Below are positions 54,098 through 64,000 of a stretch of 64,000 nucleotides of DNA, piece by piece. The stretch is from Burkholderiales bacterium. GTDB lineage: Bacteria > Pseudomonadota > Gammaproteobacteria > Burkholderiales > SHXO01. Position 1 is the first letter of the stretch; each line of letters starts with the position of its first letter. The notes beneath the pieces are model-generated. The model worked only from the letters and a program-made list of their open reading frames with translations. It was not told the DNA's origin and did no database searches. The stretch is taken from the NCBI GenBank assembly GCA_020854105.1, contig JADZGB010000002.1, positions 1,695 to 65,694 on the forward strand. Direction: 5' to 3'. The translations under genes and the position numbers were made by a program.

Positions 54098-54287
54098 AAG
54101 AAGCTCCGCCGCGAGGATGCCGGCCGGGCCTGCGTCCCGCGCAGAAACAATTCTGTTTCGAAGCAGACATCGTGCGGATACCGCACCCGCGTACGGTGTG
54201 GGTGTCACGAGCAGATCCTGTGCGCTGAGCCGTGCAGCAGAACGCTGGATGCAGCTACCCATTCCAACCGTCATCACGGAGCGCGCC

Positions 54288-55382
54288 ATGTCCGCTCAAC
54301 GTCGCCAGCTTCCTCACCAGTCCGACCGCCTGTTCATGACCGACGGCGGGCTGGAGACCACCCTGATCTTCCAGGACGGCATCGACCTTCCGGCATTCGC
54401 CGCCTTCGATCTGATGAAGTCCGAGGAGGGCATGCAGCGGCTGCGCGAATATTACCGGCGCTATGTCGTGATGGCGCACGCACTCGGTCTCGGCATCGTG
54501 CTGGAGGCGCCGACCTGGCGCGCCAATGCTGACTGGGCAACCCAGCTCGGGTACGACGAGGTCTCGCTGGCGCGCGTCAATCGCCGGTCGATCGGGATGC
54601 TTGCCACCCTGCGCCAGGCGTACGAGACCGCTGGTACTCCGATCGTGCTCAGCGGCTGCCTGGGGCCGCGTGGAGACGGATACCGCGTGTACGGGCGCAT
54701 GACCGCCGCGCAGGCGCGCGACTACCACGCCGTGCAGATCGATACCTTCGCAGGTACCGAGGCAGACATGATGGCGGCCTTCACCATGAACTACGTCGAC
54801 GAAGCGCTTGGCATCGTGCTGGCCGCGCGCGGCGCGCAGATGCCGGTGGCGATCTCGTTCACGGTGGAGACGGACGGACGTCTGCCGTCCGGCGATACGC
54901 TGCAGGAGGCGATCGAGCGCACCGATCGGGAGACCGACGGCTATCCCGCCTACTACATGATCAACTGCGCGCACCCGACACACTTCCACCACGTACTGTC
55001 GGACGAGCGTCATCCCGGCGACAGCCAGGATTCAGCAACCACCTCCCGTCATCCCGGCGACAGCCGGGATCCAGAACTCCCCGGCTGGCGCATGCGCATC
55101 GCCGGCATTCGTGCCAACGCGTCCACGCGCAGCCACGCAGAACTGGACGAGAGCACGGAGCTGGACGATGGCGATCCCGTCGAGCTCGGCCGTCAATACG
55201 TGGCGCTGCGCGGCCTCCTGCCGCGGCTGACGGTGGTGGGCGGCTGCTGCGGCACGGATCACCGGCACGTCGAGTCGATCTGCCGGGCGATGAGCGACGT
55301 TGCCGCGCCGGTTTCGATTCCGATCGCCTCCTCGTCCGGGGCGGACGCTTTGCGCGGTGGCACCCGGCTGCCGGCCGGATGA
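54288..55382 (+). CDS. Homocysteine S-methyltransferase family protein carrying an in-frame REP-derived insertion
   Basis: LFMTDGGLETTLIF N-terminus; zinc-ligand contexts MINCAHP and VVGGCCGTDHRHV. ATG at 54288; the ORF start at 54090 lies inside REP array 5 and is rejected. Confidence 0.85.
   Translation: MSAQRRQLPHQSDRLFMTDGGLETTLIFQDGIDLPAFAAFDLMKSEEGMQRLREYYRRYVVMAHALGLGIVLEAPTWRANADWATQLGYDEVSLARVNRRSIGMLATLRQAYETAGTPIVLSGCLGPRGDGYRVYGRMTAAQARDYHAVQIDTFAGTEADMMAAFTMNYVDEALGIVLAARGAQMPVAISFTVETDGRLPSGDTLQEAIERTDRETDGYPAYYMINCAHPTHFHHVLSDERHPGDSQDSATTSRHPGDSRDPELPGWRMRIAGIRANASTRSHAELDESTELDDGDPVELGRQYVALRGLLPRLTVVGGCCGTDHRHVESICRAMSDVAAPVSIPIASSSGADALRGGTRLPAG
55018..55084 (-). repeat. 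REP unit-A doublet located inside the methyltransferase CDS (opposite orientation to array 5)
   Basis: The reverse complement reads ctggatcccggctgtcgccgggatgacgggaggtggttgctgaatcctggctgtcgccgggatgacg, almost colinear with 54037-54097. Confidence 0.8.
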
Positions 55383-58715: not shown

Positions 58716-59468
58716 TCACCCCCCCACCTTCGGCTGGTGATAGAACCTCACCACCTGCACGATCGGATCGTTCGTACTGCTCACGAACCCGCGCAGCACC
58801 AGCCGGTAGCGGCCCGCCGGTACGGCCGAGGCTCCAGTCCATTTCACCGCGAACGGCCTGCCGCCCGCCTGGCGGCCGAAGTCCTGCGAGAACACCGCCC
58901 GATCACCGGACTCCGGAAAGATCGACGCCTTCAGCACCGATTCCTCGCGCACGCGGAAATAGAACACGTACGAGTCCGCCGAACGGGGCGGATCGGACTG
59001 ATACAGCACCACCGGCGCCACCGCTTCGTCGGCGCTGGGATTGGGCTTGTCCAGTCGCGCCACCACGCCCAGATCGTGCGGCTGCAGGCCACGCAGCTGC
59101 TTGAGGACTTCGCCGGTTGGCCACTCGAAGGTGTTGCCGAAACCGGCGCGCCACGGATCGTGCGGTTCGACCCGGTCCAGCCAGTAGTAATGCTTGTAGT
59201 CGAGTTCGCGCACGACCAGATTGACGCTTCGCTGGCGATCGAGGTAGAAGCGCGCGTGCAGTCGCTCCCCGAGGTCAGGCGCGTCCTCGTGATAGTCGAT
59301 CTGGGCAGCGAGCAGTTCCACGTCGAAGCCGGACACGGGCTTGGGCTTGATGCCCTCGAATCGGTTGTCGCGCTTCTGGTACTGCAGGGAATCCTGCGCG
59401 TGCAGCGCCGGGCTGAGCGCGAGTGCAGCCAGCACGATGGCAACGACGTACGGGCCGAGTCTGGACAT
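58716..59468 (-). CDS. Secreted hypothetical protein (250 aa)
   Basis: The ATG at 59468 is preceded by GAGGAGG. Signal peptide MSRLGPYVVAIVLAALALSPALHA; no motif recognised. Confidence 0.65.
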   Translation of the reverse strand: MSRLGPYVVAIVLAALALSPALHAQDSLQYQKRDNRFEGIKPKPVSGFDVELLAAQIDYHEDAPDLGERLHARFYLDRQRSVNLVVRELDYKHYYWLDRVEPHDPWRAGFGNTFEWPTGEVLKQLRGLQPHDLGVVARLDKPNPSADEAVAPVVLYQSDPPRSADSYVFYFRVREESVLKASIFPESGDRAVFSQDFGRQAGGRPFAVKWTGASAVPAGRYRLVLRGFVSSTNDPIVQVVRFYHQPKVGG

Positions 59469-59590
59469 GGCGCACCTCCTCACGGCAAGGATCCGCGGGC
59501 CGAGCAGAGGAGCCTAGCTTACCGTCTGCAGAGCGCAGTGGCGAAAAAGTGCGTGACGATTGTTGGACTCGCGCGGAGATGATGAAGAGG

Positions 59591-59700
59591 CCGTCGCCCC
59601 GGCGAACGCCGGGGCCCAGCGCAACAGAGAAGGCTCTGGATCCAGGCTTCCGCCGGGATGACGGAATCGTAGGCTTCTGTCTGAATGACGGCTTCCGCCG
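59591..59700. repeat. REP-like composite element, array 8
   Basis: ccgtcgccccggcgaacgccggggcccagcgcaacagagaaggc, ctggatccaggcttccgccgggatgacgg. Confidence 0.85.
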
Positions 59701-59723
59701 TCCTTTCCCTCACCAGGCCGTCG

Positions 59724-59972
59724 TCACTTGCGGCCGTAGGTTTCCTCGGCTTTCGTCATGTTGCCCGACGCATCTGCCATGAACTTGCCCTTGGCCTCAG
59801 GGCTGCTGAAGCAATAGGTCTTTCCGTTGATCTGCTCGCTCACCGAGCAGTCGGTCTTCACGTGCTTGCCCAGGGAAAGGCCGTACGCGCATTCCTGGTC
59901 GAACTCGCCTTTGGCAGCGAAGGCGGTAGCGGCGAGCATGGACATCGCAATCGCGATCAGGGTCTTCTTCAT
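59724..59972 (-). CDS. Small secreted protein (82 aa), YHS/TRASH-like
   Basis: Signal peptide MKKTLIAIAMSMLAATAFA. The mature part has 3 Cys and a GKTYCFSSPEAKGKF block reminiscent of YHS domains. Confidence 0.6.
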   Translation of the reverse strand: MKKTLIAIAMSMLAATAFAAKGEFDQECAYGLSLGKHVKTDCSVSEQINGKTYCFSSPEAKGKFMADASGNMTKAEETYGRK

Positions 59973-60148
59973 GACAGTGTCTCCGTGGTCGAGAAACGAC
60001 AGCTTCGTCATCGAAAGCCATGACGAAGGCTCGATGCGGCTTCCTGCCGATGAGGCGGGTGCGGCGAGTCCGGCATCGGAGCGCGAGGTGACTCGCAAGC
60101 AGCGTACCCAGTTCACCGGTCGGTGACCGGCACGCCCGAAACAGAGCC

Positions 60149-60285
60149 GTTACACGCCCATACAAACTGTTTCTGCGGCGACAAAGGCGGGTTACCTCGG
60201 GTGCGTAGAGTGGCAACCGTACTGAACACGGACTCGAACACCGGTTCGGACGGAAGCGCCCACTCAACCAACCCAGGAGATGACC
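60149..60285 (+). promoter_or_regulatory. Conserved 5' leader, copy 1 (candidate cis-regulatory RNA/operator) of the small-peptide gene
   Basis: Aligns by eye along its whole length with 63567-63700, with substitutions that keep potential stems. Confidence 0.4.
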
Positions 60286-60513
60286 ATGAACGCCAAGACC
60301 ATTCTTTTCGCCATCGCGATCGTCGCATCCGCAAACACCTTCGCCGCCGGCCGCGACAGCGTGTACGCCCAGCCCGGCACGGCCGTGAGGATGTCCACGA
60401 AGGCGATCGTTTCGGTTCAGGGCCGCAGCAGCGTATATGCGAAGGATCTGCCTGTGGTGATGAAGTCGACCCGTCAGGCGACGATGTCCAGCGGGAAGTT
60501 CGGTCGCGCGTGA
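60286..60513 (+). CDS. Small secreted peptide, paralog 1 (GRDSVYA / GRSSVYAKDLP / GRA motifs)
   Basis: MNAKTILFAIAIVASANTFA signal. Start chosen by homology with paralog 2 and spacing from AGGAGA (the ORF-track start at 60280 is 2 codons earlier). Confidence 0.7.
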   Translation: MNAKTILFAIAIVASANTFAAGRDSVYAQPGTAVRMSTKAIVSVQGRSSVYAKDLPVVMKSTRQATMSSGKFGRA

Positions 60514-60554
60514 TGGCGGCGAGAGCGCGGGCCTGGAAGGGTCCGCGCCGCGTC

Positions 60555-60989
60555 TCAACGCTTCTTCGACGGGGCGTAGCGCACGTCGATGCGGTAGTCC
60601 ATGCGCAGACTGCACGGTACCGGCTGACTCTCGGGGGGCTCCATGTGCCCCGGACATTCGAGCGTGCCGCTCGCACTGACTTTTCCCGCCTTGAGCGCCT
60701 TGATCACCACTTCCTCCAGCCGGAAGCCGCCGTGCAGACACAGCGTGCGCGGACAGGCGAAGGCGAAGAACGCCTTGGCGGCGGGGAAGATGATGTGCTG
60801 TCTGGGCGAGTAGTGACCGAGGCTGATCGGATCGACGAAAGTCGAGGCAATCAGCAGTTCCTCCACTTTCGGAAACAGTTCGCCCATCGTGCCCGCCTGC
60901 GCATAGGCGTGGCGCCACTGCTCTGACTGGCGTTTGAACGTGTCGGTATTTCTGCCGCCGCGATCCGGCGTGCTGAATCGCATCACCAT
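60555..60989 (-). CDS. Hypothetical protein (144 aa), Cys/His-containing
   Basis: Coding-like ORF directly downstream of the 76-aa ORF on the same strand. Contains CPRTLCLHGG and ECPGH. Confidence 0.5.
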   Translation of the reverse strand: MVMRFSTPDRGGRNTDTFKRQSEQWRHAYAQAGTMGELFPKVEELLIASTFVDPISLGHYSPRQHIIFPAAKAFFAFACPRTLCLHGGFRLEEVVIKALKAGKVSASGTLECPGHMEPPESQPVPCSLRMDYRIDVRYAPSKKR

Positions 60990-61006
60990 GTTCCTTTACG
61001 GCACGC

Positions 61007-61237
61007 TCAACGCCACCCCCTGCGTCCGACCAGGTGGTAATCGCCGCCGTGCGAGCTGCTGCGACGGCCGCTCTCGGGCGAGGATGGCGGGGGCGCGAAA
61101 TGCGTGCACCAGTCGTGGTCGAAGCGAATCACTCGCGAAGCGGTCTCCGGCGCGTCGGCAGTAGCGGGGAAGGTGAGGGTGAATCCGTCGGTGAACGCGC
61201 AGGCGCGCTTGCCGTAGGGCTCTCGAGATGGCTTCAT
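61007..61237 (-). CDS. Hypothetical small protein (76 aa)
   Basis: The ATG at 61237 is preceded by a strong AGGAGG. The longer ORF to 61450 has no RBS and an odd N-terminus. Confidence 0.45.
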   Translation of the reverse strand: MKPSREPYGKRACAFTDGFTLTFPATADAPETASRVIRFDHDWCTHFAPPPSSPESGRRSSSHGGDYHLVGRRGWR

Positions 61238-61507
61238 GTTTGGACCTCCTGTGAATCCCCGAACGCGACGAGCCGGCAGAACTGTCCGGCCAAGGGGATC
61301 TGCGAAGCCGACTGAACCGATACACCGAGGCTGCGCCTTTTCGCGGGCGAATTCAAGGGAAATCTTGGCGACAGGCCAGCGCAGCGCGCACGAAACGGCG
61401 CATTTCGCGTGTACCGCTTGCAATATCAGCGAAATGGCTCCATAAAGCAAGGCTTGCCGCGTTGACCGAGGGCCGGCCTCGCCTCGTCCTCGTCGACGTG
61501 ATTCAAT

Positions 61508-61555
61508 TTCACCCGGTCAAGGTTATCCCACTTCACCCGATCAAGGTTATCCCAC
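61508..61555 (+). repeat. Two tandem 24-bp direct repeats (TTCACCCGRTCAAGGTTATCCCAC) abutting the start codon of the 79-aa ORF
   Basis: Units at 61508-61531 and 61532-61555 differ at one position. ATG at 61557. Confidence 0.85.
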
Positions 61556-61556
61556 G

Positions 61557-61796
61557 ATGAGAGTAAGCACCGATCCCGATTATCTCAGCGCCCGCGCCGC
61601 GCAACTGGCCAAGTACGAGGCCGAGCGCGACCAGGCAATCAAGAAGAACGACAAGGGCGAGTACAAGGAAGGCGAGTTCGAGCGCGTGCGCGATGCGCAG
61701 CGGCACGAGTATGCGATCGCGATGAGCCGCTGGTACGCCGAGTTCACGCTCCGCGAGACCAAGCAGGCGCAGGCAGCGGCTGCAGGCAATCTGTGA
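61557..61796 (+). CDS. Hypothetical small helical protein (79 aa)
   Basis: Charged, helix-prone sequence (AAQLAKYEAERDQAIKKNDKGEYKEGEFERVRDAQRHEY); no motif recognised. Confidence 0.45.
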   Translation: MRVSTDPDYLSARAAQLAKYEAERDQAIKKNDKGEYKEGEFERVRDAQRHEYAIAMSRWYAEFTLRETKQAQAAAAGNL

Positions 61797-61810
61797 GAGG
61801 TGCCTTGGCG

Positions 61811-62045
61811 GCTAGCTGCGCCGGGATGACGGAAGCGCCGTCGTATCGGCGGATGTAAAGCTTGCCCCGGGTTGCCTACTGTAAATCCGGGGCCGGTGCC
61901 CAGCTATAACGAGAAAGCCCCTTCTCTGTTCTCGCTGGATCCCGGCTTTCGCCGGGATGGCGGAGAAGACGAATTAATCGCGGCGTTCGCCGCGATGACG
62001 ATGTCGAGTCGTACGCCTAGGATGACGAGATCCAGGCGTTCGCCA
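61811..62045. repeat. REP-like composite element, array 9 (largest, with degenerate units)
   Basis: gctgcgccgggatgacgg, ctgtaaatccggggccggtgcc, gctggatcccggctttcgccgggatggcgg, aatcgcggcgttcgccgcgatgacg, gatccaggcgttcgcc. Confidence 0.8.
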
Positions 62046-62050
62046 TCTCG

Positions 62051-62701
62051 CTACTGCCTCACGAACTTCATCTTCATCGCCTCGCCCTCGGGTGCGCCTT
62101 CCAGCACATTGCCCTTGCGCGTGAGCACCAGCGGTGCACCGCCGTCGGGATCGGACACGGTCACCTTGTCGCCGACCACCTTGTACGTGGCGTCGCGCGC
62201 ATCCGATGGTGTCTGGGAGCCGGCCACGAGAATGCGCACCTTGCTTGCAGGCCGGAAGTCGAGCACCACATTGACCTTCGCGTCGCCTGCCTTGTACTTG
62301 CCTGACAGCGCGGCGCCCTTGGAACTTCCGAAGGCGGCCGTCGCACCTGGCTTAGTCCCGGCCGGCGTACCCGGCTTCGCCGCGGCCGCTGAACCGCCGC
62401 CCTTGCAGTAGGTGCCCAGCGGCCCGCCGCCGACCACGCAGCCCTTGTCGTCCAGGGTGAAGACGTTGGTCTCGTTTCCCACCGTGATAAGCACTTCCTT
62501 GCCATCGACCTCGTACGTGCCGACCTTGGTCATGCCCATGAAGGTCACGTACACCTTTCCGCCGGAGCGGAAGCTCAGCTTCTCGAAGAGGCTGGTGCCG
62601 ACCTGCTGGTAATCGCCATCCAGCCGGGCGGCGAGGGCCGGCAGCGCGACACAGACGCAGCCGAGCAGAGCGAGGAAGCGGATGGCGATGCAGGCCGGCA
62701 T
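62051..62701 (-). CDS. Secreted hypothetical protein with two copies of a ~70-aa beta-rich module
   Basis: Signal/lipobox-like N-terminus (FLALLGCVCVALPALA). The modules start LDGDYQQ.. and LSGKYKAG.. and are separated by a Gly/Ala/Pro linker. Confidence 0.7.
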   Translation of the reverse strand: MPACIAIRFLALLGCVCVALPALAARLDGDYQQVGTSLFEKLSFRSGGKVYVTFMGMTKVGTYEVDGKEVLITVGNETNVFTLDDKGCVVGGGPLGTYCKGGGSAAAAKPGTPAGTKPGATAAFGSSKGAALSGKYKAGDAKVNVVLDFRPASKVRILVAGSQTPSDARDATYKVVGDKVTVSDPDGGAPLVLTRKGNVLEGAPEGEAMKMKFVRQ

Positions 62702-62721
62702 GATGGTCTCTCCCGTTGTTC

Positions 62722-63453
62722 CTACTTCTTCTTCATCCGCGCGACGAACGAATCCGGCGGTCCGCGCAGCGCGCCGTCGTCATCGACCTTGAACTGCAGG
62801 TCCTCGTCGTCGCACGTGAGGACGACGAGCATCGCCGTTCCCTTGTGCGTGCACTCCATTGTCAGGCCCTGCATCGACATGAAGGCGACGCCCTTGGGCT
62901 TGAACTCGATCTGCACGCCGCCGTCTGCATTCGCGTAGGTGCCCGCGAGGGGAGATGGACCCGATGCAGCAGTCCGGGCCGGCGCCGCGGCAGCGGGTTC
63001 GGCGTCCGCGGCGGCCGGCACGGCGCCGTCCTTCGCCAGCTTCAACTCCCTGCACTCGGCCCAGCCGACCGTGCCCGGCGCCTCGAGCTGGCACCAGGCG
63101 CCGTTCACCTTGACCACCTTGGCGCGCAATATCGTGCCTTGCGTGCGCAGGTCTACCACCTCACCCGCCTTGAACGCTGCGGCCGGTTTCCCGCCGCGCT
63201 GCAGCAGACGCAGCTTGCTCGCGTGCACCGGCACCTCGCCGGCACCGGGGACCGACAGCACCACGTAGCCGGACTCGTCCGGTCCGACCGTGACCTCGCC
63301 CACCGTGGGCCCCATGCCGCTCACGTACTCTGCCAGATCGCCGAGCGCGAGCGGTCCCTTGGACGGCTTGGGCTCCGCCGCATGCGCGGATACGGAAAAC
63401 AGGAGCAACACGAGACACTGCACTACGAGCGGGACAACACGGGGACAGCGCAT
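62722..63453 (-). CDS. Secreted hypothetical protein: SH3/Tudor-like N-domain + one copy of the same ~70-aa module
   Basis: The ATG at 63453 is preceded by GAGGAGA. Signal peptide VVPLVVQCLVLLLFSVSAHA. The C-terminal module (LAGTYANADGGVQIEFKPKG...) is related to the modules of the neighbouring gene. Confidence 0.7.
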   Translation of the reverse strand: MRCPRVVPLVVQCLVLLLFSVSAHAAEPKPSKGPLALGDLAEYVSGMGPTVGEVTVGPDESGYVVLSVPGAGEVPVHASKLRLLQRGGKPAAAFKAGEVVDLRTQGTILRAKVVKVNGAWCQLEAPGTVGWAECRELKLAKDGAVPAAADAEPAAAAPARTAASGPSPLAGTYANADGGVQIEFKPKGVAFMSMQGLTMECTHKGTAMLVVLTCDDEDLQFKVDDDGALRGPPDSFVARMKKK

Positions 63454-63566
63454 GGAGGTCTCCTCGGGTTGGTCTTCTTGGAAGGATGGCGCCTCGGCTG
63501 GGGGGACGCAGCCGGCAGCATGATGCGCCCGAATCGATGCGCGCGCCATTCAGTGGAAACACTGGT

Positions 63567-63700
63567 GTTACACAGCCATACGAACTGTTTCCCGCCCGAC
63601 AGAAGCGGGTTACCCGCGGTGCGTAGAGTGACAACCGTGCCGAACACGATCTGGAACACCCGGTTCGGACAGTGAAGTCCACTCAACCCAGGAGACGATC
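63567..63700 (+). promoter_or_regulatory. Conserved 5' leader, copy 2 (candidate cis-regulatory RNA/operator)
   Basis: Homologous to 60149-60285; same GAAACA...TGTTTC inverted repeat and CYGAAC...GTTCGG stem. Confidence 0.4.
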
Positions 63701-63928
63701 ATGAACGCCAAGTCCATCCTCTTCATCGCAGCCATCGCAGCCTCCACCAGCACGTTCGCCGCAGGGCGCGACAGCGTGTATGCCCAGCCCGGCCAGAGCG
63801 TCGGCAAGTCCACGAAAGTCACGGTCACGGCGCAAGGGCGCAGCAGCGTGTACGCGAAGGATCTGCCCGCGCCGCGCCGTTCCACCGGCTACGCGCAGTC
63901 CACGATGACCAAGCCCGGGCGTGCGTGA
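63701..63928 (+). CDS. Small secreted peptide, paralog 2
   Basis: MNAKSILFIAAIAASTSTFA signal; GRDSVYAQPG, GRSSVYAKDLP, C-terminal PGRA. AGGAGA RBS. Confidence 0.7.
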   Translation: MNAKSILFIAAIAASTSTFAAGRDSVYAQPGQSVGKSTKVTVTAQGRSSVYAKDLPAPRRSTGYAQSTMTKPGRA

Positions 63929-63947
63929 TGCGCAGCGCCTCGGACCA

Positions 63948-63975
63948 CAGCCCGCTTCGGCGGGCTGTTTTGTTT
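63948..63975 (+). terminator. Rho-independent terminator after paralog 2
   Basis: cagcccgc-ttcg-gcgggctg followed by ttttgttt. Confidence 0.8.
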
Positions 63976-64000
63976 GGAACCCCGGAAGAACTCCCGTACA

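Follow-up and report, generated by a model that had tools for sequence, protein, structure and literature searches.

What kind of element is the conserved block of about 148 nucleotides (nt) that stands, in two copies, in front of two paralogous small-peptide genes of an uncultured Burkholderiales bacterium? Both copies lie in the window, by which we mean the whole 64,000-nt stretch of contig JADZGB010000002.1 (assembly GCA_020854105.1) that was analysed, at 60138-60285 and 63556-63700, and an earlier note made from the letters alone had described them as a duplicated structured leader, i.e. a candidate riboswitch or an operator plus attenuator. Judging from comparison with homologous regions, the duplicated leader is most probably an ordinary region for the control of transcription rather than a riboswitch. 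We consider it most plausible, with a probability of roughly 0.72, that the block consists of an activator-dependent promoter with an array of response-regulator binding sites, followed by a 5′ untranslated region (5′ UTR) that carries a hairpin.

Two leaders and a small family of secreted peptides

The two upstream regions are homologous and can be aligned end to end with a column identity of 83% when the flanks are included, in line with the four-fifths that had been estimated by eye, and blastn comparison of the leader copies returned identities of 76-77% (E-values from 3e-23 to 2e-29). The full combination of leader and gene occurs just twice in the genome (4.07 Mb, 100% complete). Both leaders are located directly 5′ of plus-strand genes for paralogous secreted peptides of 75 amino acids with the common start ATGAACGCCAAG: peptide gene 1 (60286-60513), known from the list of open reading frames (ORFs) and from clusters of homologues, and peptide gene 2 (63701-63928). 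Both peptides possess a signal sequence of the form MNAK...FAA, the motifs GRDSVYA and GRSSVYA, and a C-terminal GRA, and searches of Pfam and NCBIfam with both peptides returned no family. The Shine-Dalgarno sequence AGGAGA is present on the plus strand at 60275-60280 in copy 1 and, read from the sequence, at 63690-63695 in copy 2, in each case five nucleotides before the ATG (spacers TGACC and CGATC, start codons at 60286 and 63701), so that the seven-nucleotide spacing given previously is to be corrected. Downstream of peptide gene 2 a terminator-like hairpin of 9 bp, followed by a T-run, is located at 63947-63968; it is the source of weak, sub-threshold matches to the rsmX and istR models of Rfam, and the terminator scan reported one here and one on the minus strand near 60003-60028, and no others.

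Among 5.8 billion proteins, 27 clusters of this small peptide family were found, and it belongs to an uncultured Burkholderiales lineage. In relatives and metagenomes 21 further peptide-gene homologues, all distinct, also have the leader in front of them, and the similarity is thus not a recent duplication private to this genome, as had been allowed for. Genome and metagenome searches, together with exact-protein look-ups, provided an alignment of 23 distinct leader-bearing upstream regions, named A3, in which the GGAG of the Shine-Dalgarno sequence is invariant; all of its members are close relatives within a single lineage, which inflates any support obtained by shuffling. The distant peptide homologues L034 and L042-44 have no leader directly upstream, and another small ORF precedes them. 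In one homologous locus (L039:481-980) the peptide genes stand in tandem, and the second, which is probably co-transcribed with the first, is preceded by only the last ~40 nt of the leader, from after the hairpin onwards, with no distal part.

Candidate operator array and predicted promoter

The distal part of the block is rich in short repeated elements. On the plus strand of copy 1 the candidate operator array (60138-60196) comprises GAAACA (60138-60143), GTTACA (60149-60154), the imperfect dyad CATACAAAC-TGTTTC (60159-60173), GACAA (60180-60184) and GGTTACC (60190-60196). The array of copy 2 (63556-63614, plus strand), recognised from its alignment with copy 1 and by pattern matching, comprises GAAACA (63556-63561), GTTACA (63567-63572), CATACGAAC-TGTTTC (63577-63591), GACAG (63598-63602) and GGTTACC (63608-63614). 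In both copies the GWWACA-type hexamers GAAACA, GTTACA and CATACA start 11 and then 10 bp apart, and the sequence TACA-N6-TACA is literally present at 60151-60164. The blocks conserved in A3 are GGAWACA, GTTACA, CATACAAAC-TGTTTC, GACAA and GGTTACC, separated by variable spacers, and upstream of the hexamer TAGAGT the conservation follows a period of 10-10.5 nt (power 4.2, other periods not exceeding 2.1); downstream of TAGAGT this periodicity was not found.

This hexamer, at 60206-60211 in copy 1 and 63624-63629 in copy 2 (plus strand), is the predicted -10 element. It is preceded by an invariant GGTGCG, and TAGAGT or TAAAGT is present in 23 of the 23 peptide leaders. If all related regions, described below, are taken together, the hexamer after GCG reads TAGAGT, TAAAGT, TAGCCT, TAGGCT, TAATCT, TAGTCT, TAACCT, TAAGCT or TACGGT, so that in all ~38 of them TAnnnT stands at a fixed distance with T1, A2 and T6 invariant and the inner bases free, which is how information is distributed in a sigma-70 -10 element. 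Two other promoter assignments were rejected: by inspection, a sigma-54 reading (GG-N10-GC) of GGTTACC...TGC has a spacing that is off by one and a GG that is absent in front of mddA-type genes, and GCGACA as a -35 element for TAGAGT would require a 22-bp spacer, too long for sigma-70 or MerR-type promoters.

The same module in front of unrelated genes

The distal part, hereafter the module, is not restricted to peptide genes. When the A3 profile was run over the whole genome, a third, partial copy was identified on contig C13, at C13:11265-11347 (E-value 6e-6), preceding the unrelated gene of an 84-amino-acid acidic protein. It has in common with the leaders the series GTTACAC-N3-GAAACAAAC-TGTTTC-N6-GACAA-N6-AATACA-N3-GCTGCGTAGCCT, lacks the GGAWACA element, and continues into a hairpin and a ribosome-binding site of its own. 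The acidic-protein gene is followed by mddA, encoding methanethiol S-methyltransferase (NF045656, 348 bits against a cut-off of 270). The pattern TGTT-N8-GA-N11-TAC-N6-TGCGTA gave 12 matches in 6 of the 28 genomes of the genus and none for the reversed control; allowing one mismatch revealed a fourth site in the own genome, at 54154-54193 of the window, the reversed control having no match at one mismatch or fewer. This further copy (54144-54197, plus strand), supported by the pattern match and by a scan for the dyad and TAnnnT, carries GAAACA-ATTC-TGTTTC, GACAT, GATACC and the -10-like TACGGT (54192-54197). It is followed, at a distance of 91 nt, by the ATG (54288) of a gene for homocysteine S-methyltransferase (54288-55382; PF02574, E-value 1.8e-31), and a module variant of the homocysteine S-methyltransferase type was also found in the relative G013. 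The dyad with TAnnnT at a fixed distance occurs at four sites only in the genome. The module would drive at least four promoters in this genome, namely those of the two peptide genes, of the acidic protein and mddA operon and, probably, of the homocysteine S-methyltransferase gene; three of the module-bearing promoters lie less than 10 kb apart within the window.

A survey of 301 genomes from across the order yielded convincing modules beyond the genus in two genomes of another family only (3 matches for the reversed control); both carry TAGAGT and precede a different gene, encoding a 316-amino-acid protein. An extra module with TAGAGT in one relative locus (L040:3850-4350) is followed by two short minus-strand ORFs that resemble a toxin-antitoxin pair; possibly an orphaned promoter, it was not retained as a further target, since no plus-strand gene comes after it.

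A response regulator beside the module

The gene divergent from the C13 module (C13:10460-11185) encodes a 242-amino-acid protein with the domains Response_reg (PF00072, E-value 1.6e-31) and Trans_reg_C (PF00486, E-value 6.2e-23). Its best NCBIfam matches are OmpR (239.6 bits, cut-off 331) and TorR (228.2 bits, cut-off 275), both below the cut-off, and it is best described as an OmpR/TorR-like regulator with no named orthologue. In the same genome the regulator gene is followed by that of a hybrid PAS histidine kinase of 1217 amino acids, and the locus as a whole (C13:6476-12400, L073) has kinase and regulator on one strand, and module, 84-amino-acid acidic protein and MddA on the other. The regulator's own -10, also on the minus strand, is TATACT in this genome, whereas relatives have TATAAT.

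At seven of the seven loci of the C13 type examined first, regulator gene and module are divergent neighbours. Orthologues with at least 65% identity are present in 10 of the 28 genomes of the genus. Four orthologue loci (65-74% identity) that had been missed by the strict pattern have TGTTTC, TAnnnT and direct repeats of the GATACAAAC type next to the regulator gene, and repeats of the form GATACAAAC-N1/2-GATACAAAC recur at orthologous regulator loci. Both modules in the other family are likewise divergent from a 65%-identical orthologue, and the module thus stands beside a divergent regulator gene at 13 of 13 orthologue loci, in 12 genomes of two families. The occurrence of the distal ~75 nt before unrelated genes and beside a response-regulator gene, together with the fixed TAnnnT, points to promoter and operator DNA.

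We propose that the first ~75 nt of the block (60138-60211 in copy 1, 63556-63629 in copy 2) exert control as DNA, as a sigma-70-type promoter with TAGAGT as -10 and no recognisable -35. Upstream of it, GWWACA-type half-sites, including the GAAACA-N3-TGTTTC-like dyad, would recur once per helical turn on one face of the DNA, and the phosphorylated C13 regulator would occupy these tandem sites and draw RNA polymerase to the promoter, activation appearing more plausible than repression. Transcription would start ~7 nt after TAGAGT, near 60216-60219 in copy 1 and 63634-63637 in copy 2, and produce a 5′ UTR of ~70 nt that opens with a stem-loop, CCGU-CYGAAC...GUUCRG-ACGG, which would most plausibly serve as a 5′-terminal stabilising hairpin that leaves the Shine-Dalgarno sequence unpaired.

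Possible binding by another factor

The same promoter and operator may have another binder, such as a MerR-family protein, in which case the response regulator would be nothing but a co-regulated target; we regard this as improbable. Two metagenomic loci (L045:1-407 and L052:1313-2260) encode a MerR-domain protein of ~315 amino acids beside the peptide gene, divergently in L052, GGTTACC constitutes a 7-bp palindrome between the -35 region and the -10, and the distance of 21-22 bp between GACAA and TAGAGT is over-long, as in MerR-type promoters; the module of the relative G023, for which no response-regulator orthologue was detected, would also suit a different factor. However, MerR operators are long dyads within spacers of 19-20 bp, and here no dyad exceeds 7 bp. 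The MerR gene is absent from the surroundings of both window copies and from most loci, whereas the response-regulator gene adjoins the module at every orthologue locus in both families, and direct repeats with a period of 10-11 bp are a hallmark of binding by the OmpR/PhoB family.

The block as a possible structured RNA

According to a further explanation the whole ~148-nt block is transcribed, either from farther upstream or from a promoter at its 5′ edge (GGAWACA-N17-TACAAA), and acts as a structured cis-regulatory RNA, i.e. a riboswitch or a protein-binding leader, as had been suggested originally. We give this very little credence. Both copies do contain the three pairings on which the suggestion was based, exactly as described, the segment GGTGCGTAGAGTGG-NAACCGTGCTGAAC is very strongly conserved, and the whole of copy 1 folds better than its shuffles (z -2.3). 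The whole of copy 2 does not (z -0.1), and the predicted folds of the two copies differ except for the third hairpin. An Rfam cmscan of 59000-64000 (4227 models, E-values up to 10) returned six weak matches, none of them in either leader. For the whole block RNAalifold on A3 found a consensus of -4.15 kcal/mol with 6 mostly invariant pairs and no double or compensatory changes. In A3, stem 1 (GAAACAG/CTGTTTC) is 72% paired, which equals the shuffles, and the pair formed by A35 is lost in the 13 sequences that have T there. For stem 2 the figure is 62.6%, less than the average of the shuffles and much like that of slid registers, and here too substitutions break pairs. A pairing between GGTTACC and GGNAACC also failed its controls, all substitutions in A3 except two breaking a pair. 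A weak GGUGCG/CGUGCY helix, in which three of four variable positions are tolerated through wobble changes, speaks for an RNA, and no multi-helix architecture supported by covariation was found in A3, only the third hairpin being supported.

Other properties of the block also argue against this explanation. Its conserved distal part precedes genes of unrelated function, with differing downstream sequences and no single pathway or ligand, and is conserved with the 10.5-nt period described above. At the 5′ edge GAWACA-N17-TACAAW can be read as -35 and -10-like elements, but this promoter was rejected: the C13 copy has no GGAWACA, and the T with which a -10 ends is missing from TACAAA in most sequences. 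A leader peptide was likewise discarded: a frame in phase with the gene exists in one homologue (P0021) and is out of phase in the window copies, and some indels are not multiples of three. The earlier note had foreseen that a transcription start downstream of the conserved region would leave promoter or operator DNA only, and it is comparison, rather than a mapped start, that places the predicted start downstream of the array. Its alternative wording, operator plus attenuator, comes close to this result in so far as a conserved regulatory element beyond a bare promoter is present, but the structured leader finds no support as the headline.

The third hairpin and the predicted 5′ UTR

The third pairing described by eye, CYGAAC...GTTCRG or H3, fared better than the other two and is probably a real RNA structure. 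It is present in 23 of the 23 A3 sequences, with some compensatory change, and begins 6 nt after the predicted -10 hexamer, the Shine-Dalgarno sequence being predicted as unpaired downstream of it. In copy 1 the plus-strand stem-loop (60217-60253), extended with respect to the stem noted before, has the form CCGU/CUGAAC/CGG...CCG/GUUCGG/ACGG and a minimum free energy (MFE) of -16.5 kcal/mol (z -3.6); in copy 2 (63635-63672, plus strand) CCGAAC...GUUCGG with a short extension reaches an MFE of -11 kcal/mol, its pairs being kept in the family alignment. The H3 core is 85% paired in A3, and pair 119:162 is U-G in 9 sequences, U-A in 8 and C-G in 5. With the extension by CCGU/ACGG, 87% of the cells are paired, three pairs show double changes among the 23 sequences, and covariation amounts to 0.114 against 0.075 in shuffles (1/500); the mean z is -2.2. 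This support appears real but modest. The mutually exclusive hairpin proposed through a second GAACAC in the loop is not conserved: that element is confined to the two window copies, with GAACA in one relative (3/23).

Most peptide leaders have conserved a C/A-rich tract (CCCACUCAACC), located between hairpin and Shine-Dalgarno sequence at 60256-60274 and 63673-63689 in the window; it might enhance translation or be the target of a small RNA.

The DNA of the third stem could instead represent a promoter of the extracytoplasmic function (ECF) or sigma-E type, GAAC-N16/17-TCRGAC, or a palindromic operator for a second protein, with a 5′ UTR of ~30 nt. GAAC and TCRGAC are nearly invariant, the spacer measures 15-17 nt in 21 of the 23 sequences, the conserved GAC is situated outside the core stem, the fold of the reverse complement is equally good with wobbles that show no strand bias, and small secreted proteins are typical targets of envelope-stress responses. 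However, the homologues L041 and L058 have spacers of 29 and 33 nt, through loop inserts of 13 and 17 nt, and still fold, L058 by means of compensating changes. The spacers are moreover self-complementary with lineage-specific sequences (CGAU/AUCG, GACAU/AUGUC, CGC/GCG), and the conserved GAC pairs with an upstream GU(C) in the extended stem, where L054 and L060 share a double change from C-G to U-A. Other module-bearing promoters have different, unrelated hairpins at the same position and no GAAC, and there is in our view only a slim chance that the third stem is a promoter or an operator.

Several observations weigh against the activator-dependent promoter that we prefer. There is no acceptable -35 at 16-18 bp upstream of TAGAGT, the TTGACA-like GACAA being 21-22 bp away, and a consensus sigma-70 promoter scan calls no promoter at the leaders. 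The permutation of columns used for the periodicity ignores local autocorrelation, which makes its p-value of ~2e-4 optimistic. The assignment of the -10 and the boundary between DNA and RNA are derived from comparison, binding by the C13 regulator is suggested by synteny, and in G023 (78% complete), which has the module, no regulator orthologue was found. As to the hairpin, H3 of copy 2 considered alone has a z of -0.3, the reverse complement folds about as well (-12.6 versus -13.2 kcal/mol), and the wobbles do not reveal the strand, the apparent rule of U-G and never C.A being contradicted by the counts (9 sequences with U-G at one pair, 8 with C.A at pair 123:158); the close relationship of the A3 sequences also means that the shuffles overstate the support for H3.

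Comparison with known systems

In the pho-box of PhoB and the tor-box of TorR, direct decameric repeats replace the -35 and end ~10 bp before the -10, and the regulator gene lies beside the target operon. The predicted promoter resembles both systems in its repeats at the place of the -35 and in the position of its regulator gene, but their half-sites are CTGTCAT and CTGTTCATAT whereas GWWACAAAC is found here, the sites here are more numerous, and there is no link to phosphate or trimethylamine N-oxide genes.

OmpR/PhoB-family regulators have been described to bind tandem repeats, e.g. the RstA box TACA-N6-TACA, and ompF is bound by OmpR as six tandem protomers, head-to-tail or head-to-head binding being possible (PMC4117788). 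Compared with the OmpR sites of ompF and ompC (F1-F3 and C1-C3) and with the RstA box, the array has half-sites of a similar type (GTTACA, GAAACA and xATACA, with TACA-N6-TACA), arranged as head-to-tail repeats of ~10-11 bp over several turns, with a -10 downstream that is not accompanied by a good -35, and the candidate regulator, with OmpR as best NCBIfam match, has the same Response_reg and Trans_reg_C architecture. Unlike OmpR, it falls below the equivalog cut-offs of both OmpR and TorR and is an orthologue of neither, its partner is a soluble hybrid PAS kinase and not EnvZ, the array contains one half-site in inverted form, TGTTTC, and comes as close as 9 bp to the -10, and in place of porins the putative targets are genes for secreted peptides and S-methyltransferases, the binding being predicted here.

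With the 5′ UTR hairpin of ompA, the leaders have in common a stable predicted hairpin few nucleotides from the putative 5′ end, an exported-protein mRNA and a free Shine-Dalgarno sequence, but no sequence similarity, and a stabilising function would be assigned here by position. The riboswitches and cis-regulatory leaders of Rfam are similar in presenting a conserved non-coding block of ~150 nt with hairpin potential before a gene; they differ in that none of the 4227 models matches and that the conserved part here is common to unrelated genes and follows a helical-repeat period as in protein-DNA contacts.

A possible regulon for sulfur metabolism and orphan peptides

The comparison removes a false riboswitch candidate and illustrates that comparison alone can separate a conserved "leader" into promoter and operator DNA on the one hand and transcribed RNA on the other. 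It outlines what would be a small two-component regulon, not described before, of an uncultured lineage of Burkholderiales, to which mddA, a homocysteine S-methyltransferase gene and the genes of the two orphan secreted peptides would belong. The mechanism would be conventional, and regulator, operator and four target promoters represent a concrete, testable system.

As a speculative suggestion, which we hold to be doubtful, regulator and hybrid PAS kinase may sense volatile or toxic sulfur compounds (H2S, methanethiol or related) and jointly induce MddA, the homocysteine S-methyltransferase and the GRxSVYA peptides. Equally speculatively, the conserved 5′ hairpin and the CA-rich tract could together form a genus-specific element of post-transcriptional control. 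A full-text literature search for mddA together with response regulators returned no described mddA regulator; if true, the first suggestion would provide a dedicated regulator of dimethylsulfide formation through MddA, the first to be described, as well as a physiological context for the orphan peptide family.

In the relative G003 (L034:1448-3200) a distant GRxSVYA paralogue, with a small ORF before it, is located on one contig downstream of the module, the acidic protein and mddA, so that peptide family and mddA are linked by position as well as by promoter. Finally, in the relatives G026 and G012 (L083 and L084) a paralogous response regulator with 52-55% identity is divergent from an mddA-like gene, with GAAACAAAT-GAAACAAAA direct repeats and TAAAGT in the intergenic region, which suggests that the pairing of regulator and mddA is older than the peptide targets.

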